From the NCBI GenBank assembly GCA_963797095.1, contig CAWCNY010000003.1, positions 736,001 to 800,000 on the forward strand: DNA of 64,000 bases, read 5' to 3'. Each line of letters opens with the position of its first letter. The first letter of the stretch is position 1. The position numbers were made by a program, and so were the translations under genes. This DNA comes from an uncultured Chloroflexia bacterium. Its GTDB lineage: Bacteria; Chloroflexota; Chloroflexia; QHBQ01; JADMIH01. Below, piece after piece: positions 16 through 32,364 of the stretch. The notes under the pieces were generated by a model, which made no database searches, had not been told where the DNA came from, and was given only the letters and a program-made list of their open reading frames with translations.

Positions 16-1413
16 TCAAGTTCCCATGCGCGAGGGTCGCTGGTGGGCCTGGGCTGCACGGCGGTAGTATTCCATCGCCTGCTTGTGATCGCCCCGCTCT
101 TCCAGCACCTGAGCATAGCTGAACGTGAGTGCGTACACCGCTTCCTCAAACGGAGTTTGCTCGATGGCCTCAAGCGCCTGGTGGAACAATCGATCTGCTT
201 CTTTGGTGTTGCCCCGCTTTTCCTCGATCAAGGCCGCAACCTGGAGGGCCTCGGCATGTGTGCGCTGGGCGTTCCCGCGTGTTTGCTTGCCGGTACCTTC
301 ACTCTGCTTGCTGAGTGCCTCGCTCAGTTTGACGCTCTCCTCTGCATATTTGGCTGCCTCGTCCAGGTTGCCCCGCTGCCTTGCCAGGTCGGCGTAGTTG
401 TGATACAGGCTGCTGAGCAACACCTGGTCTCCCGCATTGGCAAGCAGGCCCTCCGCCTTCTTCAGCAGATCTTCGGCCTCCGAGTACTTCTGTTCGCCCA
501 TCATTAGCTCGGCCAGATTCATACTGATAGCTGCGGCTTCTGCCCGGTTGTCGGCGGCCTCATAGATGTGGAGGGCACGCGTTGCATATAACTTGGCTCT
601 GGCCCAATCGCCCTTGGCCTTATAGCCTGTCGCTATACCCCAGAAGATATTTGCCTGGCGTTGCAGATCGTACACATCATCGAGCATTTTGAGGGCATTC
701 TGATATGTGCTGATGGCGTGCGGCAGATCGTTCGCCGCCCAGTAATCATTCGCAAGGTTGCGATATACGCTCAGGTGTAGGTTTACATCCTTGGCTTCGT
801 TCTTCTGGACCGCACGCAAGCATTGCAAATGGTATTCCAATGCCAGTTGCGGCTGGCTCTGTTGATAAAGTGCTACGCCGAGCATGTTGCGAACGGTGGT
901 AGTAGCTTCCGCATCACCATCTTTCTCAGCGATCTCAAGGGCCTTTTCCAATTCAGGGCGCGCAAGGTCCGGCTCCGATTTTTGCAAATAGGCCAGCCCG
1001 CGCAGGAATGGGATGCGGTAACGAATACGGGCGGGTAGTTTTGGCATATATAACTCGGCGCTTGCTTCAGCATCCGCCAGGAGCTTGAGCGCTTCGTCCG
1101 AATTATCGGTACGGATCAGCATTTTGGCATAATTGAACTGGTATGTCAGGTCTTCTTGGAGTGCGTCAACTTCTGGCGGAGTCTCTGTATCGAGCCGAGC
1201 AACCAGGAAATCAGCAATGGGGATATTCAATCTCCTGGCAAAAACGTCCAGGGCTTTGAGCGATGGCCTTACCGCCCCACGCTCCAGAGCGCTTACATAC
1301 CCCTTGGTAAATTCGGGGCCGGCAAGCACTTCCTGTGTCATGCCCCGCTCTAACCGTGCCTTGCGAATCCTCATTCCAAGCGCGGCTAGCGTATTCTTAG
1401 TAGAGACATCCAT
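16..1413 (-). CDS. XRE-family HTH + TPR transcriptional regulator (RRNPP/NprR-like architecture)
   Basis: N-terminal LGMRIRKARLERGMTQEVLA...YVSALERG...PS Cro/C1 HTH followed by ~380 aa of TPR-like helices; GGGGAG RBS upstream. Confidence 0.85.
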   Translation of the reverse strand: MDVSTKNTLAALGMRIRKARLERGMTQEVLAGPEFTKGYVSALERGAVRPSLKALDVFARRLNIPIADFLVARLDTETPPEVDALQEDLTYQFNYAKMLIRTDNSDEALKLLADAEASAELYMPKLPARIRYRIPFLRGLAYLQKSEPDLARPELEKALEIAEKDGDAEATTTVRNMLGVALYQQSQPQLALEYHLQCLRAVQKNEAKDVNLHLSVYRNLANDYWAANDLPHAISTYQNALKMLDDVYDLQRQANIFWGIATGYKAKGDWARAKLYATRALHIYEAADNRAEAAAISMNLAELMMGEQKYSEAEDLLKKAEGLLANAGDQVLLSSLYHNYADLARQRGNLDEAAKYAEESVKLSEALSKQSEGTGKQTRGNAQRTHAEALQVAALIEEKRGNTKEADRLFHQALEAIEQTPFEEAVYALTFSYAQVLEERGDHKQAMEYYRRAAQAHQRPSRMGT

Positions 1414-1456
1414 AGGTTACTCCCCCTTGTGGGTGTAGGTTTAGATTTAACCGCGT

Positions 1457-1481
1457 ATCTATGTTTCATAATAACATAGAT
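1457..1481. promoter_or_regulatory. Perfect 9-7-9 inverted repeat, candidate operator of the XRE-TPR gene
   Basis: ATCTATGTT-TCATAAT-AACATAGAT, about 45 bp upstream of the start at 1413. Confidence 0.5.
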
Positions 1482-1670
1482 CGACCTGCAAGCAAAGGAT
1501 TAGGACTGACTGTAAACTGCAACTTCTTTTATGCCATCAATTACCCTCCTGTTCTTAGACATCCATCTAAGTAGGGGAACGACAACATGCGTAGAGCTAG
1601 CTGCACGCATAGGCCGCCTGCCAAAGTGAACTGCATTATACTAGATAATATGGCCTGGTGCAAATTCCTT

Positions 1671-1774
1671 TCCATATCGTCCATATCGTCCATATCGTCC
1701 ACTACAATGGTGCGAAGATAATGCGTACAAAGCCCCACCACGATATCAAGTCTGCCCCACCACGATATCAAGTC
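1671..1774. repeat. Short tandem repeats: TCCATATCG x3 and GCCCCACCACGATATCAAGTC x2
   Basis: 9-mers at 1671-1697; 21-mers at 1732-1752 and 1754-1774. Confidence 0.85.
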
Positions 1775-1847
1775 GCTAGATGCTACATGTAACATCTGAT
1801 ATTGCCTATCCTACTATTCAGTCGCTATCAGGTTCGGTCATCATCAG

Positions 1848-4235
1848 CTACTCGTCGCACTCAGAAAGAAATGTGTTGGACACGATCTTGGTCACCTGCC
1901 CTCTCGTTGCGTTGTTGCTTGGGCGGAAATATGGTAGATCGCTCGGAGGTACGCACGGCTCCGGGTTGCTACAGGGATAGCCGCTCACTACACCCCGGTT
2001 AGCAAGTTGCTGGGTGAAAGTATAGAAAGTCGAGCCTGGAGGCATATCCTCGAATAACTGCGTGCCTGGCGGATCTATGATATTTGCTGCCAGCGCCACA
2101 ATCTTCGAGATCTGCCCGCGTGTCGCGTTGCTATTCGGCCTGAAGTAGGGCAAATTGAGAGGACCTACACAGGGCTCGCCCACACCTCCACATGGATAGC
2201 CGCTCATTATGCCCCTGCTCGCCAGCCTCTGTATGAAGGTATAGAAAGTTGAGCCGGGGAGCACATCCTCGAAGCTCTGACCGCTGGCGGGTTCTACAAA
2301 TCCTGCGGCGCTTGCCACCACGCTTGAGAGCTGCCCCCTGGTGATGTTCATACCGGGCCGGAAGTATGGATCGTCAGTTGGATCGCAAGGCTCACCAACC
2401 CCGCCGCAGGGATACCCCGACAGAATGCCTCTGCATGCCAGGCACCTCGCAAACGCGTAGAATGTGCTTCCCTCCGGCACATCCGCGAATTGCATGCTGC
2501 AAGTAGTCGGGCTAGGGCTTGCGGTCGGTCCACCTGTAGATGTAACTATTGGTGTGAGTGCAGCGCTAGCAGTGGGAGTAGTGGTCGCAGTGTCGGTAGT
2601 GGTCGCGGTGTCGGTAGCGCTAGCGGTGGGGGTAAACGTGGGGGTGGATGTAGGCGTCGCTGTGGGAGTGGACGATGGCGTAGATGTAGGGATCGGCGTC
2701 TGTACTCCCGGCCGGTCTCCTCTGTCCACGTAGAAGTCGCCCTCCCCCGCCCCATGCCTCGTATCTATCCACGAGGCCAGCGCATAGCTATTGTCCGGTG
2801 CGAACACCAGCGACTTGCGCACGCCCAGGTAATCCACCAGCTTGAGGTCTTGCACGTTGTCCGGGTTGTTCGATACGTCGGTGACGCGCACGTTGGAGCT
2901 CCAGGTCACCCCCCCATCGGTGGACTGCGAGTAAACCAGGTCATACATGTCGCCCGTGGGCTGGTAGCGCCTGTCGTACCATGTCACCCCTGTAGTGCCA
3001 TCTGGGGCTGTCGCTATCGAAGGTTGGAACTGGTCGATGTTGTTGCCTACCGGATCGTCGTTGATTCGCGTTGGCGTGCTCCACGTGACCCCACCGTCGG
3101 TGGTCCTGCTGAAAGCTATATCCCCGAACCTGCCGCTGCTGCCACACAGCTTATAGTCAGGCTCCCATCGCCCATCGTTCCACACCGCGTATACCGCTTC
3201 CGGGTCGGTAGGCGACACCGCGATCTGGGGGTAGTGATTAATACGCAGGTAGTTGCAACTTTCCTTCACCACCAGCACCAGCTCGTGATATTTGTAGTCC
3301 GGCCCGCCGGCCAGGGTCGCAGGCGTGCCACCGATCAGCCTGTCCGGCCCCCAGGTGGCCCCACCGTCCGTGCTCCGATCCAGGTATATATCTCTCGGCT
3401 CCAGCAACAGATTGTTCGGCTTGTACTCGAATGCTACATATACCGTGCCGTCCGAAGCCACCGCCGACGATGGCCCGAACGAGTAGTAGTGGTTCGCATC
3501 CGACACATCTACCTGCGAGCTCCAACTAACCCCTCCATCGGTGGAGCTACGCATTTTGACCCCCTGCCAGAACGGGTCCGTGTTGTTGATGTAAGTCCAG
3601 AAGGCGTACAGCTTGTTGGCGAGCGGTCCCTGGGTACGCCGGTCAATAGCCAGGCTTATGCCCGCCACGTACTCATACTGGCCCTGCACCACCACCGGCA
3701 CAGGCGAACTCCAATCCAACCCGTTGGTGGTGGTCAGCACAAATAGAGCGGTGGACACGGTGCTCGATATGGCGAGACCTGTAAGATAAGCCGTACCGCT
3801 ACCGTTGAACGCCACGTTCGTTTCACCCGGTATAGGTGTGAAGCCGTTGCCCCATACATCGGTGAAAACCCGCGTGACCCAGCTATTTCCTCCGTCGGTG
3901 CTGGTAGCATAAGCAGGTGCCGAGCCGTTCCTGTCAAAATGGTCGTATCCCGCTATGATCATCTGCGGATCGAGCGGATTGATCGCTATTACCTGGTTCT
4001 TATAATTGGTAGGCGTAACCACCAACAATGGGGTGACGGCGATATCGGTTCCCCATAGTGGTTTCACGCCTCCCACCTGTGTGTAAGTGTGCGCTGTGGT
4101 GCGTACGGCAAGCACCAGGAACAGAGCGGCGCTCGCCGCGAGCACGACAACAGATCGACCCGGGCCTGCCCTCCAGGTCTGGATGTGGGGTTTCAGCCCG
4201 CGACGTACGGAATGCGAAGTGCGATTATCGCTCAT
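1848..4235 (-). CDS. Secreted SLH-domain protein with BNR/Asp-box (sialidase-like) beta-propeller
   Basis: N-terminal hydrophobic segment, repeated STDGGxTW Asp-boxes, PT-rich linker, three C-terminal SLH repeats (FxDV..GSTFY...GYPC...FRP...TRGQ). Confidence 0.85.
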   Translation of the reverse strand: MSDNRTSHSVRRGLKPHIQTWRAGPGRSVVVLAASAALFLVLAVRTTAHTYTQVGGVKPLWGTDIAVTPLLVVTPTNYKNQVIAINPLDPQMIIAGYDHFDRNGSAPAYATSTDGGNSWVTRVFTDVWGNGFTPIPGETNVAFNGSGTAYLTGLAISSTVSTALFVLTTTNGLDWSSPVPVVVQGQYEYVAGISLAIDRRTQGPLANKLYAFWTYINNTDPFWQGVKMRSSTDGGVSWSSQVDVSDANHYYSFGPSSAVASDGTVYVAFEYKPNNLLLEPRDIYLDRSTDGGATWGPDRLIGGTPATLAGGPDYKYHELVLVVKESCNYLRINHYPQIAVSPTDPEAVYAVWNDGRWEPDYKLCGSSGRFGDIAFSRTTDGGVTWSTPTRINDDPVGNNIDQFQPSIATAPDGTTGVTWYDRRYQPTGDMYDLVYSQSTDGGVTWSSNVRVTDVSNNPDNVQDLKLVDYLGVRKSLVFAPDNSYALASWIDTRHGAGEGDFYVDRGDRPGVQTPIPTSTPSSTPTATPTSTPTFTPTASATDTATTTDTATTTPTASAALTPIVTSTGGPTASPSPTTCSMQFADVPEGSTFYAFARCLACRGILSGYPCGGVGEPCDPTDDPYFRPGMNITRGQLSSVVASAAGFVEPASGQSFEDVLPGSTFYTFIQRLASRGIMSGYPCGGVGEPCVGPLNLPYFRPNSNATRGQISKIVALAANIIDPPGTQLFEDMPPGSTFYTFTQQLANRGVVSGYPCSNPEPCVPPSDLPYFRPSNNATRGQVTKIVSNTFLSECDE

Positions 4236-4267
4236 AGGCCAGGAACCCGCAAAGCGTTAGAGCAAGC

Positions 4268-5488
4268 CTAAAGCCTTCTCAACTGCGGCTTATAAACCCC
4301 TGTGATACGCTCGTAGTTGGGACGATAGCGCTCGGTGTTGTAATCGGCGGGATCAACTCTGCGCGCCGGGTACTCTTTGCCCGGTATGTCTGTGTAGATG
4401 AATTCGCCCTCTCGGTGCCCCGCCATTACGCCCTCAACACCTTTCTCTATGAGTCCCATCACCAGGTTGGCATAGAAGTTCGCCATACGCTTGTCATACA
4501 CGTCAGGCTCCCCGCTACGCAGTATATAAGTGAGATCTACCGGCAGGAAACGCACCCCTGGCAGCAGTCTCCTAAGCTCCTCTGCCAGGAACTCGGCTAC
4601 GTTTGTCTTTTTGCGGTGCCCATAAGCATCAGGCGCTCCCACTTCGGGCACAGTCACGCCCAGGTTTGCGCCCTCAGACATTATCACAATCGAGTAGCCG
4701 GAAGGATTGTGGCGATCACCCTTTACCAGGTCGGCCAGCTTCTCAATATCGACGGGTATCTCCGGGATGAGAAGGCGGTCGGCCCAGGTTGCTATGGCCG
4801 TTTCCAGGGCGGTGAAGCCCGCATCGCGGCCAAACAGGCGGAACAGTACCGTCTCTCGATGTGAGCCTGCCGTTGAACGGATGCGCTCGACGCTTTCGGA
4901 CGCCCGGTTGATCGCCGTTTGGAATCCGATACAATAGTCGGTGCCCGGCACGTCGTTGTCCATCGTCTTGGGTATCCCCCAGGTCGATACACCGTGCTTC
5001 TTCAGGACCGACCCGTAACTCAGCGTATCGTCGCCCCCGATCACGATCAGGCCATCCAGGCCCAGGAATTCGATATTCGCCAGAACCTCTTGAGTGAGGT
5101 CAACCCGCTCATCAGCGCTGTGTCCCTCCCCGTACTTGCGCAGGTGGGGCGGCAGATCCCCCACACTTATGCGCGCCGGGTTGGTGCGGGTTGATTGGAG
5201 GATCGTGCCTCCCGTGCGGTCGATTGTACGCGTGTTCAACCTGTTGAGCGGCAGCAAGTAACCTGCTTCCCACGTAGACTCGTTGTCGGCGCGAAAGCAA
5301 AGTGCATCGATGCCCCGCGCCCTGTCCATGTAAGTGATCCCTTCCCACCCGGCACGTAAGCCCATAACCTCCCAGCCCAGCGTATACGCCCTGTACACTA
5401 TTGCCTTAATAGCGGCATTGAGGCCGGGTACATCACCGCCCCCAGTCAATACCCCCAACTTCTTCATTCTCTGTGTGGTTTGTGTCAT
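4268..5488 (-). CDS. pfkA: 6-phosphofructokinase (PfkA family), probably PPi-dependent
   Basis: LTGGGDVPGLN, GGTIL, GGDDT, PKTMDND, GRDAG motifs. Confidence 0.9.
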   Translation of the reverse strand: MTQTTQRMKKLGVLTGGGDVPGLNAAIKAIVYRAYTLGWEVMGLRAGWEGITYMDRARGIDALCFRADNESTWEAGYLLPLNRLNTRTIDRTGGTILQSTRTNPARISVGDLPPHLRKYGEGHSADERVDLTQEVLANIEFLGLDGLIVIGGDDTLSYGSVLKKHGVSTWGIPKTMDNDVPGTDYCIGFQTAINRASESVERIRSTAGSHRETVLFRLFGRDAGFTALETAIATWADRLLIPEIPVDIEKLADLVKGDRHNPSGYSIVIMSEGANLGVTVPEVGAPDAYGHRKKTNVAEFLAEELRRLLPGVRFLPVDLTYILRSGEPDVYDKRMANFYANLVMGLIEKGVEGVMAGHREGEFIYTDIPGKEYPARRVDPADYNTERYRPNYERITGVYKPQLRRL

Positions 5489-29602: not shown

Positions 29603-29785
29603 CTACTTCTCTCCCACAACTGACGGGCAGTAGGAGGAGAAGGTGTTGGAGACGATCTTGGCGGCCTGCCCCCTCGTTACGTTGTTCCCTGGCCGGAAGT
29701 ACGGCCTGTTCTCAGGTCCTACGCACGGCTCACCCTCTCCTCCACATGGGTAGCCGTTGACTATGCCCCTGCTGCTCAGTCGCTC
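29603..29785 (-). pseudogene. 3' remnant of an SLH-domain gene truncated by IS6
   Basis: ERLSSRGIVNGYPCGGEGEPC...[16 protein letters not shown] begins directly at the IS inverted repeat. Confidence 0.8.
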
Positions 29786-29871
29786 GGAAGCGTCAGGACT
29801 CAGTACTCGCAATTCTCTCTGTCGCGCTTTGGGTGTCTTAGCCAAGCCTCAACCACGATCATAGTCTGCCG

Positions 29872-30099
29872 TTAGGCCACCATCAGTAGATATTGTAGGG
29901 CACCAAGTCTCTCCCTGAACAGGCGGCGTTGTTCGGCCAAGGGCACGGTTTGTTTCTGCTTGGTTCGGTATCGGAAGTGGTCTCGCTGCTCATCATACGC
30001 CCGGCAAAATCGAGATGCCGACTCGAAAGAGCCGAACCCACGCATTGGGTAGTATCTCTGTTTGATGCCACGATGATCGTGTTCCAGCCTATTTTTCAA
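29872..30099 (-). CDS. IS6 transposase, exon 2 (C-terminus)
   Basis: LKNRLEHDHRGIKQRYYPMRGF; begins immediately after the intron 3' end ...CCTAC. Confidence 0.8.
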   Translation of the reverse strand: MKNRLEHDHRGIKQRYYPMRGFGSFESASRFCRAYDEQRDHFRYRTKQKQTVPLAEQRRLFRERLGALQYLLMVA

Positions 30100-31034
30100 G
30101 TAGGATAGGCGGCCAGCGAGTTACCTTTGCAGGCACTTTTCCAACCGCCCTCCCCCGAGCCCTGCGTGCCCGTTTCCGTATCACGTGGCCCTCCGGTGAC
30201 CTATCTCGGCGAGTGCTCGCCCATCATAGCGCCCGTATTGAATGTCATGGTGGCATTTCTGGCAGACTATCAAGGTTTTGCGCTGTCGTGCTGCCATTAT
30301 TCGCATCCATCTTGGTCGTTCTGCGTGACCCTTTTGCTCAACGTCTGCTAACTTCCGTATGGGGTGAACTTCGATTTGCTCCGTTGCACCACATAGCTCA
30401 CAGCGTTGCGCCAGTAGTCGTTCGACCAACTCGCTACGGTCGCTCCAGATGGAGATGTTCAGGACTGTTTCGGCGTTTCGCATCACGCGTACCTCACAGC
30501 TACCGACCATCAGGTCACTTGTGCTCCTTCGCGCTGTGAGCGGACTTCCCGCTCTCCCTGGTGGGTCGTTACTCCCACGACTACTATGAGCTACTCCGTC
30601 ACCATTGGCCCGAAGGCCAACCCTAGGGCTCGAGCCCCTTAGGTGGTCCCATGTTCCGTCACAGAGGAACGTGCTAGAGCGACTTAGGTTCCCCACTCAT
30701 ATCCTTAAATGAGTCATTACTCATCATTCCTGTGTGCAAGGTGTACTACGCACGAAAGTGGATTACGTAGTTCATACAGGCATCGGTGTACAAACGTGCT
30801 ACCGACGTGCGTGCCTTTACGCTACTGGACATTGGGGTTCAGGTAGTTTAGCTTTAACCATATTGCTCAGGTGTTGCAGGGCCACAGTGTACACGTCTTC
30901 GACTGCTCCCCGCTTCACGACATGCTCTTGTTCCCTTTCCCTTTCGGATCCAGGTAAGTATGTTCACCTCGAAGTCATTACCCTGAACTTCGGCCATCTA
31001 CGATGGCGATTCCTCTATGCGTGACATGGCGCAC
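30100..31034 (-). mobile_element. Inner group II intron (ML/IIA-like) with internally deleted ORF, plus the only DV 3' strand and DVI
   Basis: 5' GTGCGCCATGTCACG at 31034; DV-like GAGGGCCACGTGATACGGAAACGGGCACGCAGGGCTC; 3' end ...GCCTATCCTAC. Confidence 0.8.
30181..30483 (-). pseudogene. Intron-encoded protein remnant: RT N-terminus fused in frame to the HNH/En domain
   Basis: MRNAETVLNI joined to ELVERLLAQRCELCG...EVHPIRKL...RKTLIVCQKCH; RT and X domains absent. Confidence 0.8.
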
Positions 31035-31608
31035 GCTTTCCAGGCACGAGGCTCTCCAGTGGTAACTCTATCGATAACTACTCAGTTTCGGCATTCTGCA
31101 TCTCGCATACCTATCTGGCTGGCTATCTGTACCACCTGTGCCCCTTCCCCTTGTACTGGGCGTTACCCCAATCATTTGAGTAGTGTGGGCACTCCGTTAC
31201 CTTAGGCCTCTCGACCCTTAGGCAATCCCGCATTTACCCTTGTCAGACGTTTAGCTCGTTTAGGTGCCTCTCTCGTCCCCTTCCTCCTGTTCGTTACAGG
31301 TCGTTCACCGCGTAGAGCGTTCCATCAGCCGCTATTTTACTGACGTATTGCGGTGACGCCGATTACAAGTATGCTACGGCGGGTCACCAATTCGACCACT
31401 GGAGACTAAGGTTCAGCCAATACAGGTTTCACTATGTGAGCAGGACTTGCGGTGCATCGTGCTACATACTTTCACACTTATCCGCTTTAGTGCCATGCTG
31501 TTTTCCCCTTTGCCTTTCGACGCCAGGTAGGGCAGTTGTCCTTAGGGTCATATGCTCTCAACCCTATCGTCCTGAGAACGAAATCTGATAAGAGCCGAAA
31601 CGGCGCAC
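31035..31608 (-). mobile_element. Outer, ORF-less group II intron (5' part up to the DV loop)
   Basis: 5' GTGCGCCG at 31608; micro-ORF MQNAETE* at 31078-31101; DV 5' strand GAGAGCCTCGTGCCTGGAAAGC ends at the inner intron start. Confidence 0.75.
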
Positions 31609-32199
31609 AGAGCGGTTGGTCCGGCGCTCGACCTTGCGGCCCAGTATCCGGCGTATGGCTCTTGGATAGGCATTATGTCCGTCGGTGGTCACCTTGGCCG
31701 GTCTGTGGCCAACCACTTCTCTGGCCTGCGTGAAGAACTTCTTGGCCGCCTCCATGTCTCGCTTCTCCGAGAGCATCGAGTCCACCAGATTGCCATCACA
31801 GTCTACGGCTCTGTACAGATAACACCATTTTCCGCCAACCTTGACGTACGTCTCGTCTGTGAACCACGATCCACCAGCTTTGCCTTTGCGCCTGGAGCGC
31901 AGTTGCTCGGTGACCAGCGGAGCGAACCGGCTTTCCCAATCTCTCACCGCTTCGTGGGTGAACTCGAAGCCTCGCTCCAGGAACATCTCAGCAAGATCTC
32001 GCAGGCTCAACTCGTAGCGTAGTCTCCACAAGACTACCGGGAACACTATGTCCGTGGGGAACTGGAGATGATTGCAAATGGTGCCTGTTCGCTCGTTGAA
32101 GACGCGAGTACACACTCTACAACGGAACACGTTGTAGCCGAGGGAGGTTTTCCTGGAGAGAAGGGTAGTGAAAGAGGGGGAGCAGTGAAGGCAATTCGT
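31609..32199 (-). CDS. IS6 transposase, exon 1 (Zn ribbon + DDE); the expected start codon reads ACG
   Basis: NCLHC...CRVC...FNERTGT, LSLRDLAEMF, DETYVKV, YLYRAVD, TTDGH..YPRAI. Confidence 0.8.
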
Positions 32200-32364
32200 C
32201 GGAAGTCCTTGGGTATTCCTTGCTAGGAGATGGCTGGAGTTGGGTAAGCATACTCTATAATCGTCATCATCGCCACCACCTGTTCTCATTTCTGACGCTT
32301 CCTAGCTCTCAGGCAAATACTGGAACTGCTTGGATTACCGGTTGAAGATCCCGGATAATACTCT

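Follow-up and report, generated by a model that had tools for sequence, protein, structure and literature searches.

No part of a group II intron is more conserved than domain V (DV), a catalytic domain, so a lineage of introns that homed into it would always have targets. Twintrons, in which one intron lies within another, are already known, as are group II introns that home into other mobile elements. In passages of the report on Thermosynechococcus elongatus, introns without an open reading frame (ORF) are described as using base pairing to home into insertion sequence (IS) elements and into a conserved site within another mobile group II intron, mobilised by intron-encoded proteins (IEPs) acting in trans (Mohr et al. 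2010, PMC2882425). Passages of two further papers mention twintrons merely as pipeline exceptions (PMC4028801, PMC8919778), and those of PMC3534033 and PMC5572947 contain nothing on insertion into DV. Here we analysed a 64,000-nt window of the genome of an uncultured Chloroflexia bacterium (GCA_963797095.1, contig CAWCNY010000003.1, positions 736,001 to 800,000), in which an IS6-family transposase gene is interrupted by two nested group II introns, an outer intron A and an inner intron B that lies in the DV of A. The element is likely to be a decayed, 3'-collapsed twintron, that is, a dead relic.

Two aspects are new. The first is a bacterial intron lineage whose homing site is in the catalytic DV of other introns, found in five genomes, where its hosts are introns of three kinds. 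The second is that such an insertion makes tandem repeats of DV and domain VI (DVI), as the DV/DVI of target and invader are alike, and that collapse of these repeats welds two introns into an unsplittable chimera. Each DV insertion makes the splicing of the host intron depend on the invader's own. The DV-homing lineage is the more interesting result and worth following, the element in the window being a degenerate product; for this IS6 copy, the consequence is probably just inactivation. Neither a bacterial lineage homing into DV by means of its exon-binding sites (EBS) nor a 3'-collapsed twintron was described in the full-text literature that we searched, which leaves most subscription journals outside, and either may be published.

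Two nested introns in an IS6 transposase gene

The interruption occupies 1509 nt of the minus strand, from GTGCG at 31608 to CCTAC at 30100, and follows codon 227 of the transposase gene, exon 1 ending ...ACC AAC CGC TCT at 31609. The sequence details of the original prediction, made from the DNA letters alone, were all verified on this strand: the exon end, GTGCG at both 31608 and 31034, the vestigial ORF MQNAETE with its stop, the lone DV 3' strand with DVI, and CCTAC at 30100. Removal of the 1509 nt had been claimed to rejoin the transposase in frame, and it does so, giving a 302-codon frame with the junction ...RRTNRS/LKNRLEHDHRGIKQRYYPMRGF..., collinear and without an indel relative to the intact IS6 paralogs of the same genome (...HRTNRY/LNNRLEQDHRGIKQRYYPMRGF...). 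The host is an IS6-family insertion sequence, with an IS6-type DDE transposase between terminal inverted repeats. NF033587 (transpos_IS6) scored 156 bits on exon 1 (cut-off 125), and PF13610 (DDE_Tnp_IS240) matched both exons, exceeding its cut-off for exon 1 alone (exon 2, 21.6 v 27 bits).

The most informative single result is the occurrence of A without B at the same IS6 site. We compared contigs from four public soil runs with positions 29800-32300 of the window, taking allele differences from the listed mismatches. In two of the four (X5 and X7, from different studies), contigs joined 30170 directly to 31034, skipping 863 nt, with two letters ambiguous. These A-only contigs differed from the 5' part of A at 22 of 581 nt (X5) and 9 of 180 nt (X7), and had IS6-like sequence on both sides at the same spacing, the exons themselves being far more diverged. 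Their DV has helices of 9 bp (lower) and 5 bp (upper) on either side of an AC bulge and is closed by a GAAAG loop. Since these contigs are joined over the block, A is an ORF-less group II intron of about 646 nt (31608-31035 plus 30171-30100) belonging to this IS6 site, and the window copy as A plus an 863-nt insert. When metagenome contigs were scanned with a 26-mer of A's DV 5' strand and with the first 26 nt of B (two degenerate positions), there were no matches to either.

The ends of A, GTGCG and CCTAC, agree with the group II termini 5' GUGYG and 3' AY. Its DV strands (31054-31041 and 30172-30157) pair at 8 of 9 and 5 of 5 positions about an AC bulge, with a predicted energy of -22.8 kcal/mol, and are split by the 863-nt B block. 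In its DVI, an unpaired A is found by inspection near 30106, 7 nt before the end, and the Rfam alignment spans the domain. The EBS2 of A, TTGGT, pairs with exon positions -12 to -8 (5 of 5) and its EBS1, ATAGCG, with positions -6 to -1 (5 of 6), in columns that covary in five other introns. An ORF-less intron C elsewhere in the genome (G000:C6:302232-301502, minus strand, outside the window) resembles A and has the same DV 5' strand motif, and no close match to the 5' module of A was found in 41 relatives or in 401 genomes of the class. Two unpublished genomes, G022 and G032, formed part of the searched set and support none of the statements made here.

Intron C itself lies in an IS3-family orfB, between ...LDWHSR and YIVSWELS..., and has a complete DV/DVI (43.7 bits in Rfam). 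In a soil metatranscriptome run, X3, contigs matched the 5' module of A (31081-31558) at 95-99% identity, placing an A-type intron in that RNA library and saying nothing on transcription of the window copy. A contig of X7 in which 63 other letters connect 30053 and 31611 probably derives from a diverged IS6 that has no intron, and was left out of the evidence.

The proposal of two nested group II introns held for B as well. The 5' modules of A and B are homologous along domains I to III (DI-DIII), both starting GTGCGCC, with 53% identity over 504 aligned columns. B is also homologous to introns in two other genomes, G027 and G033 (76-77% identity over 533 columns; 76.9% to that of G033), the latter being a full-length intron that encodes a reverse transcriptase (RT). 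The 603-aa IEP of the G033 intron has RVT_1, Intron_maturas2 and AI2M-like HNH domains and scored 281.6 bits on TIGR04416, just under the 300-bit cut-off of that model. With the G033 protein as reference, the ORF of B consists of the first 10 IEP codons fused in frame to the last ~90, and this remnant scores 54 bits on the AI2M-like HNH family; the His-His of the G033 protein is His-Pro in it. Block B is thereby a group II intron by homology and by its IEP remnant, and has no complete DV/DVI of its own: it ends at 30172, and the next 72 nt are A-type. Its AGC triad reads GGC. A scan of genome contigs with the first 15 nt of B returned at least 119 chance matches in unrelated bacteria, none of them B-like. 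B does lie in the DV of A, as originally placed, more exactly 2 nt 3' of the loop, within the 3' strand of the upper helix.

One expectation of the original prediction was disappointed, namely that Rfam and Infernal would report two 5' modules and a complete DV/DVI. At gathering thresholds there were no Rfam hits in the whole window. In E-value mode, a lone sub-threshold hit to Intron_gpII (RF00029) was obtained at 30100-30193, with 20.6 bits where the gathering score is 40; the other match in that mode, to snoRNA sR3 at 12 bits, was dismissed as chance. The DV/DVI of five intact related copies scored 43.7, 43.7, 46.6, 41.1 and 55.8 bits on RF00029. The Rfam D1-D4 models hit neither 5' module, nor did they hit the intact relatives of the lineage, so this absence is uninformative and the models cannot count 5' modules here.

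Homing of B-type introns into domain V

It had been proposed that B targets the DV of related introns, and the EBS1 and EBS2 of B were indeed found to be complementary to the DV sequence before 31034, in columns that covary in related introns. We aligned six related 5' modules, those of window A, window B, intron C and the introns of G027, G033 and G288. In that order, the five columns of the EBS2 block pair with the intron's own exon positions -12 to -8 at 5, 5, 5, 3, 5 and 5 of 5 positions; off-diagonal combinations mostly give 1-4, although the loop of window B also suits the target of G027, which has the same five letters. The EBS1 columns pair with each intron's own positions -6 to -1 at 5-6 of 6. 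In B, EBS1 pairs with GAAAG of A's DV, position -1 being unpaired in all three B-type cases, and EBS2 (AGGCACG) pairs with the 5' strand of A's upper DV helix through 7 contiguous pairs. Perfect 7-nt complementarity of B to the 20 nt before it is common by chance (1091 of 2000 shuffles) and so unremarkable alone; the weight therefore rests on its location in the covarying EBS2 columns.

B-like introns occupy the same DV position, two nt past the GAAA loop, in four other genomes (G027, G033, G030 and G330). The B-like introns of G027 and G033 are preceded by a DV 5' strand with GAAAG(A/C) at its end, and followed by a complementary DV 3' strand and a DVI-like hairpin. The flanks form duplexes of -15.6 and -15.4 kcal/mol, respectively, values reached by 14 and 4 of 500 shuffles. 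Pfam searches with the 42-aa and 34-aa frames upstream of the inner introns of G033 and G027 returned an HNH match at E = 0.065 (below cut-off) and nothing, respectively, so the identity of these outer introns rests on the split DV and DVI. In the other two genomes, G030 and G330, a second DV 3' strand and DVI, those of the outer intron, come directly after the B-like 3' end. G027 and G033 are one lineage (94% identical), and G030 and G330 have a common host site; by these sequences, the window and the four genomes count as three kinds of host intron rather than as five events independent of one another.

This habit is specific to the sub-lineage. A sample of 401 genomes of the phylum held 24 loci with IEPs 48-61% identical to that of G033, 20 of them with a candidate 5' end, and in none of the 20 was this end preceded by a DV strand. 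A relative in G288 (68% identical) lies in a tnpB-like gene, with EBS1 and EBS2 both altered to fit that site. A search for a DV strand followed by GTGCGCC found 4 of 401 genomes of the class, and its reversed control likewise gave 4 matches, which makes the count alone meaningless; one of the four (G127) was chance, and the other three were already known by homology. Taken as sequences, these comparisons make B a member of a small lineage that uses the DV site in other host introns too, its EBS2 tracking the host helix. The wider claim, that B targets the DV of related introns and that the two 3' ends later collapsed, is borne out by the A-only joint, the covariation of EBS with the intron-binding sites, the tandem units of G030 and G330, and the split DVs of G027 and G033.

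Other arrangements of this kind were seen. The outer intron of G030 (G030:C70; L004/L159) and G330 (G330:C154:1998-2212; L157) interrupts an ISL3-type transposase just before ...YGRAK(L/F)DLL..., and the inner B-like intron of G330 is 5'-truncated. In G033 (G033:C342, 1-5060; L156), nesting has three levels: the outer DV is split by the B-like intron (~142-4964), and the DVI of that intron is itself split (~2520-4917) by an intron of another class (group-II-D1D4-7, 97.5 bits; DV/DVI, 60.6 bits). In the genome under study but outside the window (G000:C3 near 115831 and 569575, G000:C2 near 825811), three of the four full-length introns lie directly after (Y/F)ADD codons of another reverse-transcriptase gene (...RYADD/FVVMH..., ...RFADD/FIITA...), with an IEP 56% identical to that of G033. 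These insertions are a second case in this genome of homing into the most conserved motif of other retroelements.

The surviving 3' end and splicing competence

The sequence points to A as the owner of the surviving 3' unit. Read with the C that comes before it, the initial GGGC of the unit makes CGGGC, which pairs with A's GCCTG at 5 of 5 positions, whereas all four B-like introns read CGGTC there and pair with their own GA(T/C)ACG. A relative of B in X7 (record 17) is 98% identical over 30453-30583, but has 14 differences and one gap in the 116 nt at 30099-30214, a drop to about 88%. A-only contigs differ from the window at no more than 8 of the 72 positions of the 3' unit, 3 of them listed; B-type units are 77-86% identical to it. 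The original prediction was right that the DV 3' strand pairs better with the 5' strand of A than with that of B (-22.8 v -12.1 kcal/mol), and that just one 3' end is left, B being without ~72 nt and the lone DV 3' strand and DVI lying at 30171-30100.

DVI does not discriminate, its type being common to both lineages. Its distal stem is close to that of the inner B-like intron of G030 (62 of 72 columns over the whole unit), and a BLAST match to that intron (80% over query positions 1159-1509) extends without a break from the En domain through to the 3' end. Such similarity would suit a 3' unit that is B's own, with A's lost either through a crossover at the right end of the tandem units or through a composite lariat (A 5', B 3') retrohoming into the IS6 site. 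However, A-only contigs also have this DVI type, reading the same as G030 at 30134, for example, and A-only alleles are already at the same IS6 site, so composite transposition is unneeded. With CGGGC in place of CGGTC and the falling identity of the X7 relative, we consider a B-derived unit very unlikely.

We propose that the element arose as follows. ORF-less A lies in the IS6 transposase gene, at a site matched by its EBS1 and EBS2, and, by the logic of the sequence, the related B retrohomed into A's DV, 2 nt past the loop, with EBS1 on GAAAG and EBS2 on the 5' strand of the upper helix. An in-frame internal deletion would account for the missing RT/X coding region of B. Its last ~72 nt, the DV 3' strand and DVI, are gone as well, and the equivalent unit in G330 is 72 nt. 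A complete B insertion would put B's 3' unit directly before A's, giving two ~72-nt direct repeats as in G030 and G330. As these units would be tandem and alike, loss was probably by in-register recombination between them, or by replication slippage, and in-register loss of one unit would leave the observed structure with the exon junction exact. The loss junction lies left of the first diagnostic position, and the entire surviving unit would thus be A's. A one-step alternative gives an indistinguishable result: during target-primed reverse transcription, the cleaved bottom strand, which is complementary to A's DV 3' strand, may have annealed to the similar DV 3' strand of B, and priming from that position would skip B's tail. 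By either route, B would be unable to self-excise, A's DV would remain split by 863 nt, and the transposase gene of this IS copy would most likely be unexpressed.

Several observations weigh against a decayed, 3'-collapsed relic. Both exons are open, with DDE-region motifs collinear with the paralogs, which suits a recent event but also a gene that is still spliced. The DV strands of A can pair across the 863-nt insert (-22.8 kcal/mol), making splicing as one unit conceivable. No intact A5'-B-A3' allele was found in the two metagenome scans, and the identity of the window 3' unit to the A-only alleles is bounded at 64-69 of 72, as 5 of the 13 X5 differences in 30059-30170 are unlisted. Among the runs examined, none contained the source organism, the largest share of sampled words being 0.11, and the locus is read from the assembly.

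The last of these points bears on whether the real genome has a complete twintron, with two tandem ~72-nt 3' units that the assembler collapsed, tandem near-repeats being the expected substrate for such an error. However, the genome is assembled in 8 contigs over 6.0 Mb, with several IS6 paralogs and four 2.4-kb intron copies resolved; tandem units of the same kind in G030 and G330, 77-86% alike to this one, were assembled uncollapsed; and a collapse would leave two DV substitutions unique to this copy unexplained. An artefact is very unlikely.

The open exons and the pairing across the insert would also fit a 1509-nt unit that still splices as a zombie-type twintron, in which DI-DIII of A would bind exon 1, DV would form by long-range A pairing or as a hybrid hairpin, A's DVI would branch, the B remnant would be tolerated, and transposase would be made only after splicing. 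Four full-length related IEPs, one of them the ORF at G000:C3:116408-118222, are encoded in the genome and could act in trans, and plant mitochondria are known to have external introns that splice with a fossil inner intron still in place, as passages of PMC7049729 describe. In the window, however, the insert is in catalytic DV, not in domain IV (DIV), and the closed GAAA loop is now in a weak local hairpin, a hybrid of B's 5' strand and A's 3' strand (7 of 9 and 4 of 5 paired, GGC triad, -12.8 kcal/mol). This scores 20.6 bits in Rfam against 41-56 bits, leaving the local DV/DVI about 20-35 bits below intact relatives. Positions 30163 and 30159 differ from both A-type and B-type contigs, producing a C.A mismatch and turning the G.U of the triad into G-C. 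On the RNA strand they are G and U in the A-only contigs, where the lower helix is paired at 9 of 9 positions and the 3' strand is the same as that of intron C. As a sequence pattern, two changes in 16 nt of what is normally the most conserved domain are consistent with relaxed constraint, small as the sample is. The composite is single-copy in its genome. No 31609/30099 joint was seen in the four soil runs, which is weak evidence, as none contains the organism. Serial splicing would require an inner 3' splice site, which an inner intron without its 3' unit does not have. A minimum-free-energy fold of the full 1509 nt, which pairs part of the DV 3' strand with the first bases of the intron, was given no weight. 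Splicing as one unit is thus unlikely, and decay is the reading that we retain.

The original prediction had also offered a double ribozyme with a shared 3' end that gates transposase expression by splicing. This is not supported, given the lack of a spliced joint in the four runs, the weaker DV/DVI, the two unique DV changes, the single-copy composite and a 5' module of A without a close match in the 41 relatives and 401 class genomes searched. There is also a more far-reaching proposal. B-type introns would be dedicated parasites of the catalytic DV, with EBS1 on the near-universal GAAAG loop and EBS2 retuned for the helix of each host, and the window chimera would be a bacterial zombie twintron spliced as one unit through long-range pairing of A's DV strands; the RNA on which IS6 transposase output depended would then have a pair of 5' ribozyme modules but a single 3' end. 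We regard this combination as quite improbable.

Table 1. Features of the interrupted IS6 element, by position in the window.
Feature	Position	Strand	Basis or remark
IS6 terminal inverted repeat, upstream end as the transposase reads	32282..32306	.	25 nt, 80% complementary to 29782-29806
IS6 transposase exon 1, 227 codons from upstream in-frame ATG	31609..32289	-	ORF; NF033587; PF13610
Intron A 5' part, 574 nt: GTGCG start, DI-DIII, DIV, DV 5' strand and loop	31035..31608	-	Alignments; A-only alleles 95-96% identical in X5, X7
A's EBS2, TTGGT	31390-31386	-	
A's EBS1, ATAGCG	31335-31330	-	
Vestigial ORF in A's DIV, MQNAETE and stop	31101-31078	-	
A's DV 5' strand and loop	31054-31035	-	
Intron B block, 863 nt: GTGCG start, DI-DIII, DIV ORF remnant, DV 5' strand	30172..31034	-	Without DV 3' strand and DVI
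B's EBS2, AGGCA(CG)	30816-30810	-	
B's EBS1, ACTTTC	30759-30754	-	
B's IEP ORF remnant	30483-30181	-	
B's own DV 5' strand, GAAA and C	30191-30172	-	
Intron A 3' part, 72 nt: DV 3' strand and DVI, ending CCTAC	30100..30171	-	DV 3' strand at 30171-30157
IS6 transposase exon 2, 75 codons and stop	29872..30099	-	ORF; paralog collinearity; PF13610 positions 96-132
IS6 terminal inverted repeat, downstream end	29782..29806	.	Pairs with 32282-32306

The IS6 gene showed further peculiarities. The apparent initiator Met of the paralogous transposases (...LPMNCPHC...) is Thr here (...LPTNCLHC..., window 32190-32210, minus strand), and the upstream in-frame ATG at 32289 falls within the inverted repeat; this IS copy may have a start-codon defect that is independent of the intron. 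Outside the window, at G000:C1:58400-58113 (minus strand), a 5'-truncated group II intron with DIII, DV and DVI abuts a 5'-truncated IS6 transposase copy. Its site differs from that in the window, lying before WYYIKVSGKW, with an integrase-like gene upstream. It seems that introns have targeted IS6 genes repeatedly in this genome.

Comparison with known systems

The psbF twintron of Euglena gracilis, attributed to Copertino and Hallick in 1991, reportedly has an internal group II intron in the DV of an external one. It is said to consist of degenerate chloroplast introns that are spliced out in succession, and neither a lineage with EBS pairing to DV nor any loss of a 3' unit is known from it. 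In Methanosarcina, homing is reportedly into intron ORFs, not DV, going by the title of a paper by Dai and Zimmerly from 2003.

The systems below are compared through passages of the papers cited. The window element resembles the T. elongatus twintrons in base-pairing-guided homing, which there leads into another group II intron and into IS elements; the T. elongatus site, however, lies in DIV, past the first ATG of the IEP ORF and before the second, and both introns are complete (PMC2882425), whereas in the window B entered the catalytic DV and has lost its own 3' end. Methanosarcina acetivorans offers repeated site-specific homing into group II introns, offset by deletions through homologous recombination (Zimmerly & Semper 2015, PMC4424553). 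It differs in having no coding exons there, the host in the window being an IS6 transposase gene.

Plant mitochondrial zombie twintrons likewise have a fossil, non-splicing inner intron within an outer group II intron (Zumkeller, Gerke & Knoop 2020, PMC7049729). Their outer splicing was shown by RT-PCR and their inserts are in DIV or DI (PMC7049729), whereas splicing in the window is doubtful and DV is split. Trichodesmium has a bacterial group II twintron in a protein-coding gene (Pfreundt & Hess 2015, PMC4649490), but its inner intron is in domain I and sequential splicing was shown (PMC4649490). Finally, C.te.I1 of Clostridium tetani has tandem DV/DVI units at the 3' end of the intron (PMC4424553), as do the G030 and G330 twintrons. 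In C.te.I1, the repeats are alternative 3' splice sites of one intron (PMC4424553), whereas those of G030 and G330 are the 3' ends of two nested introns, of which the window retains one.

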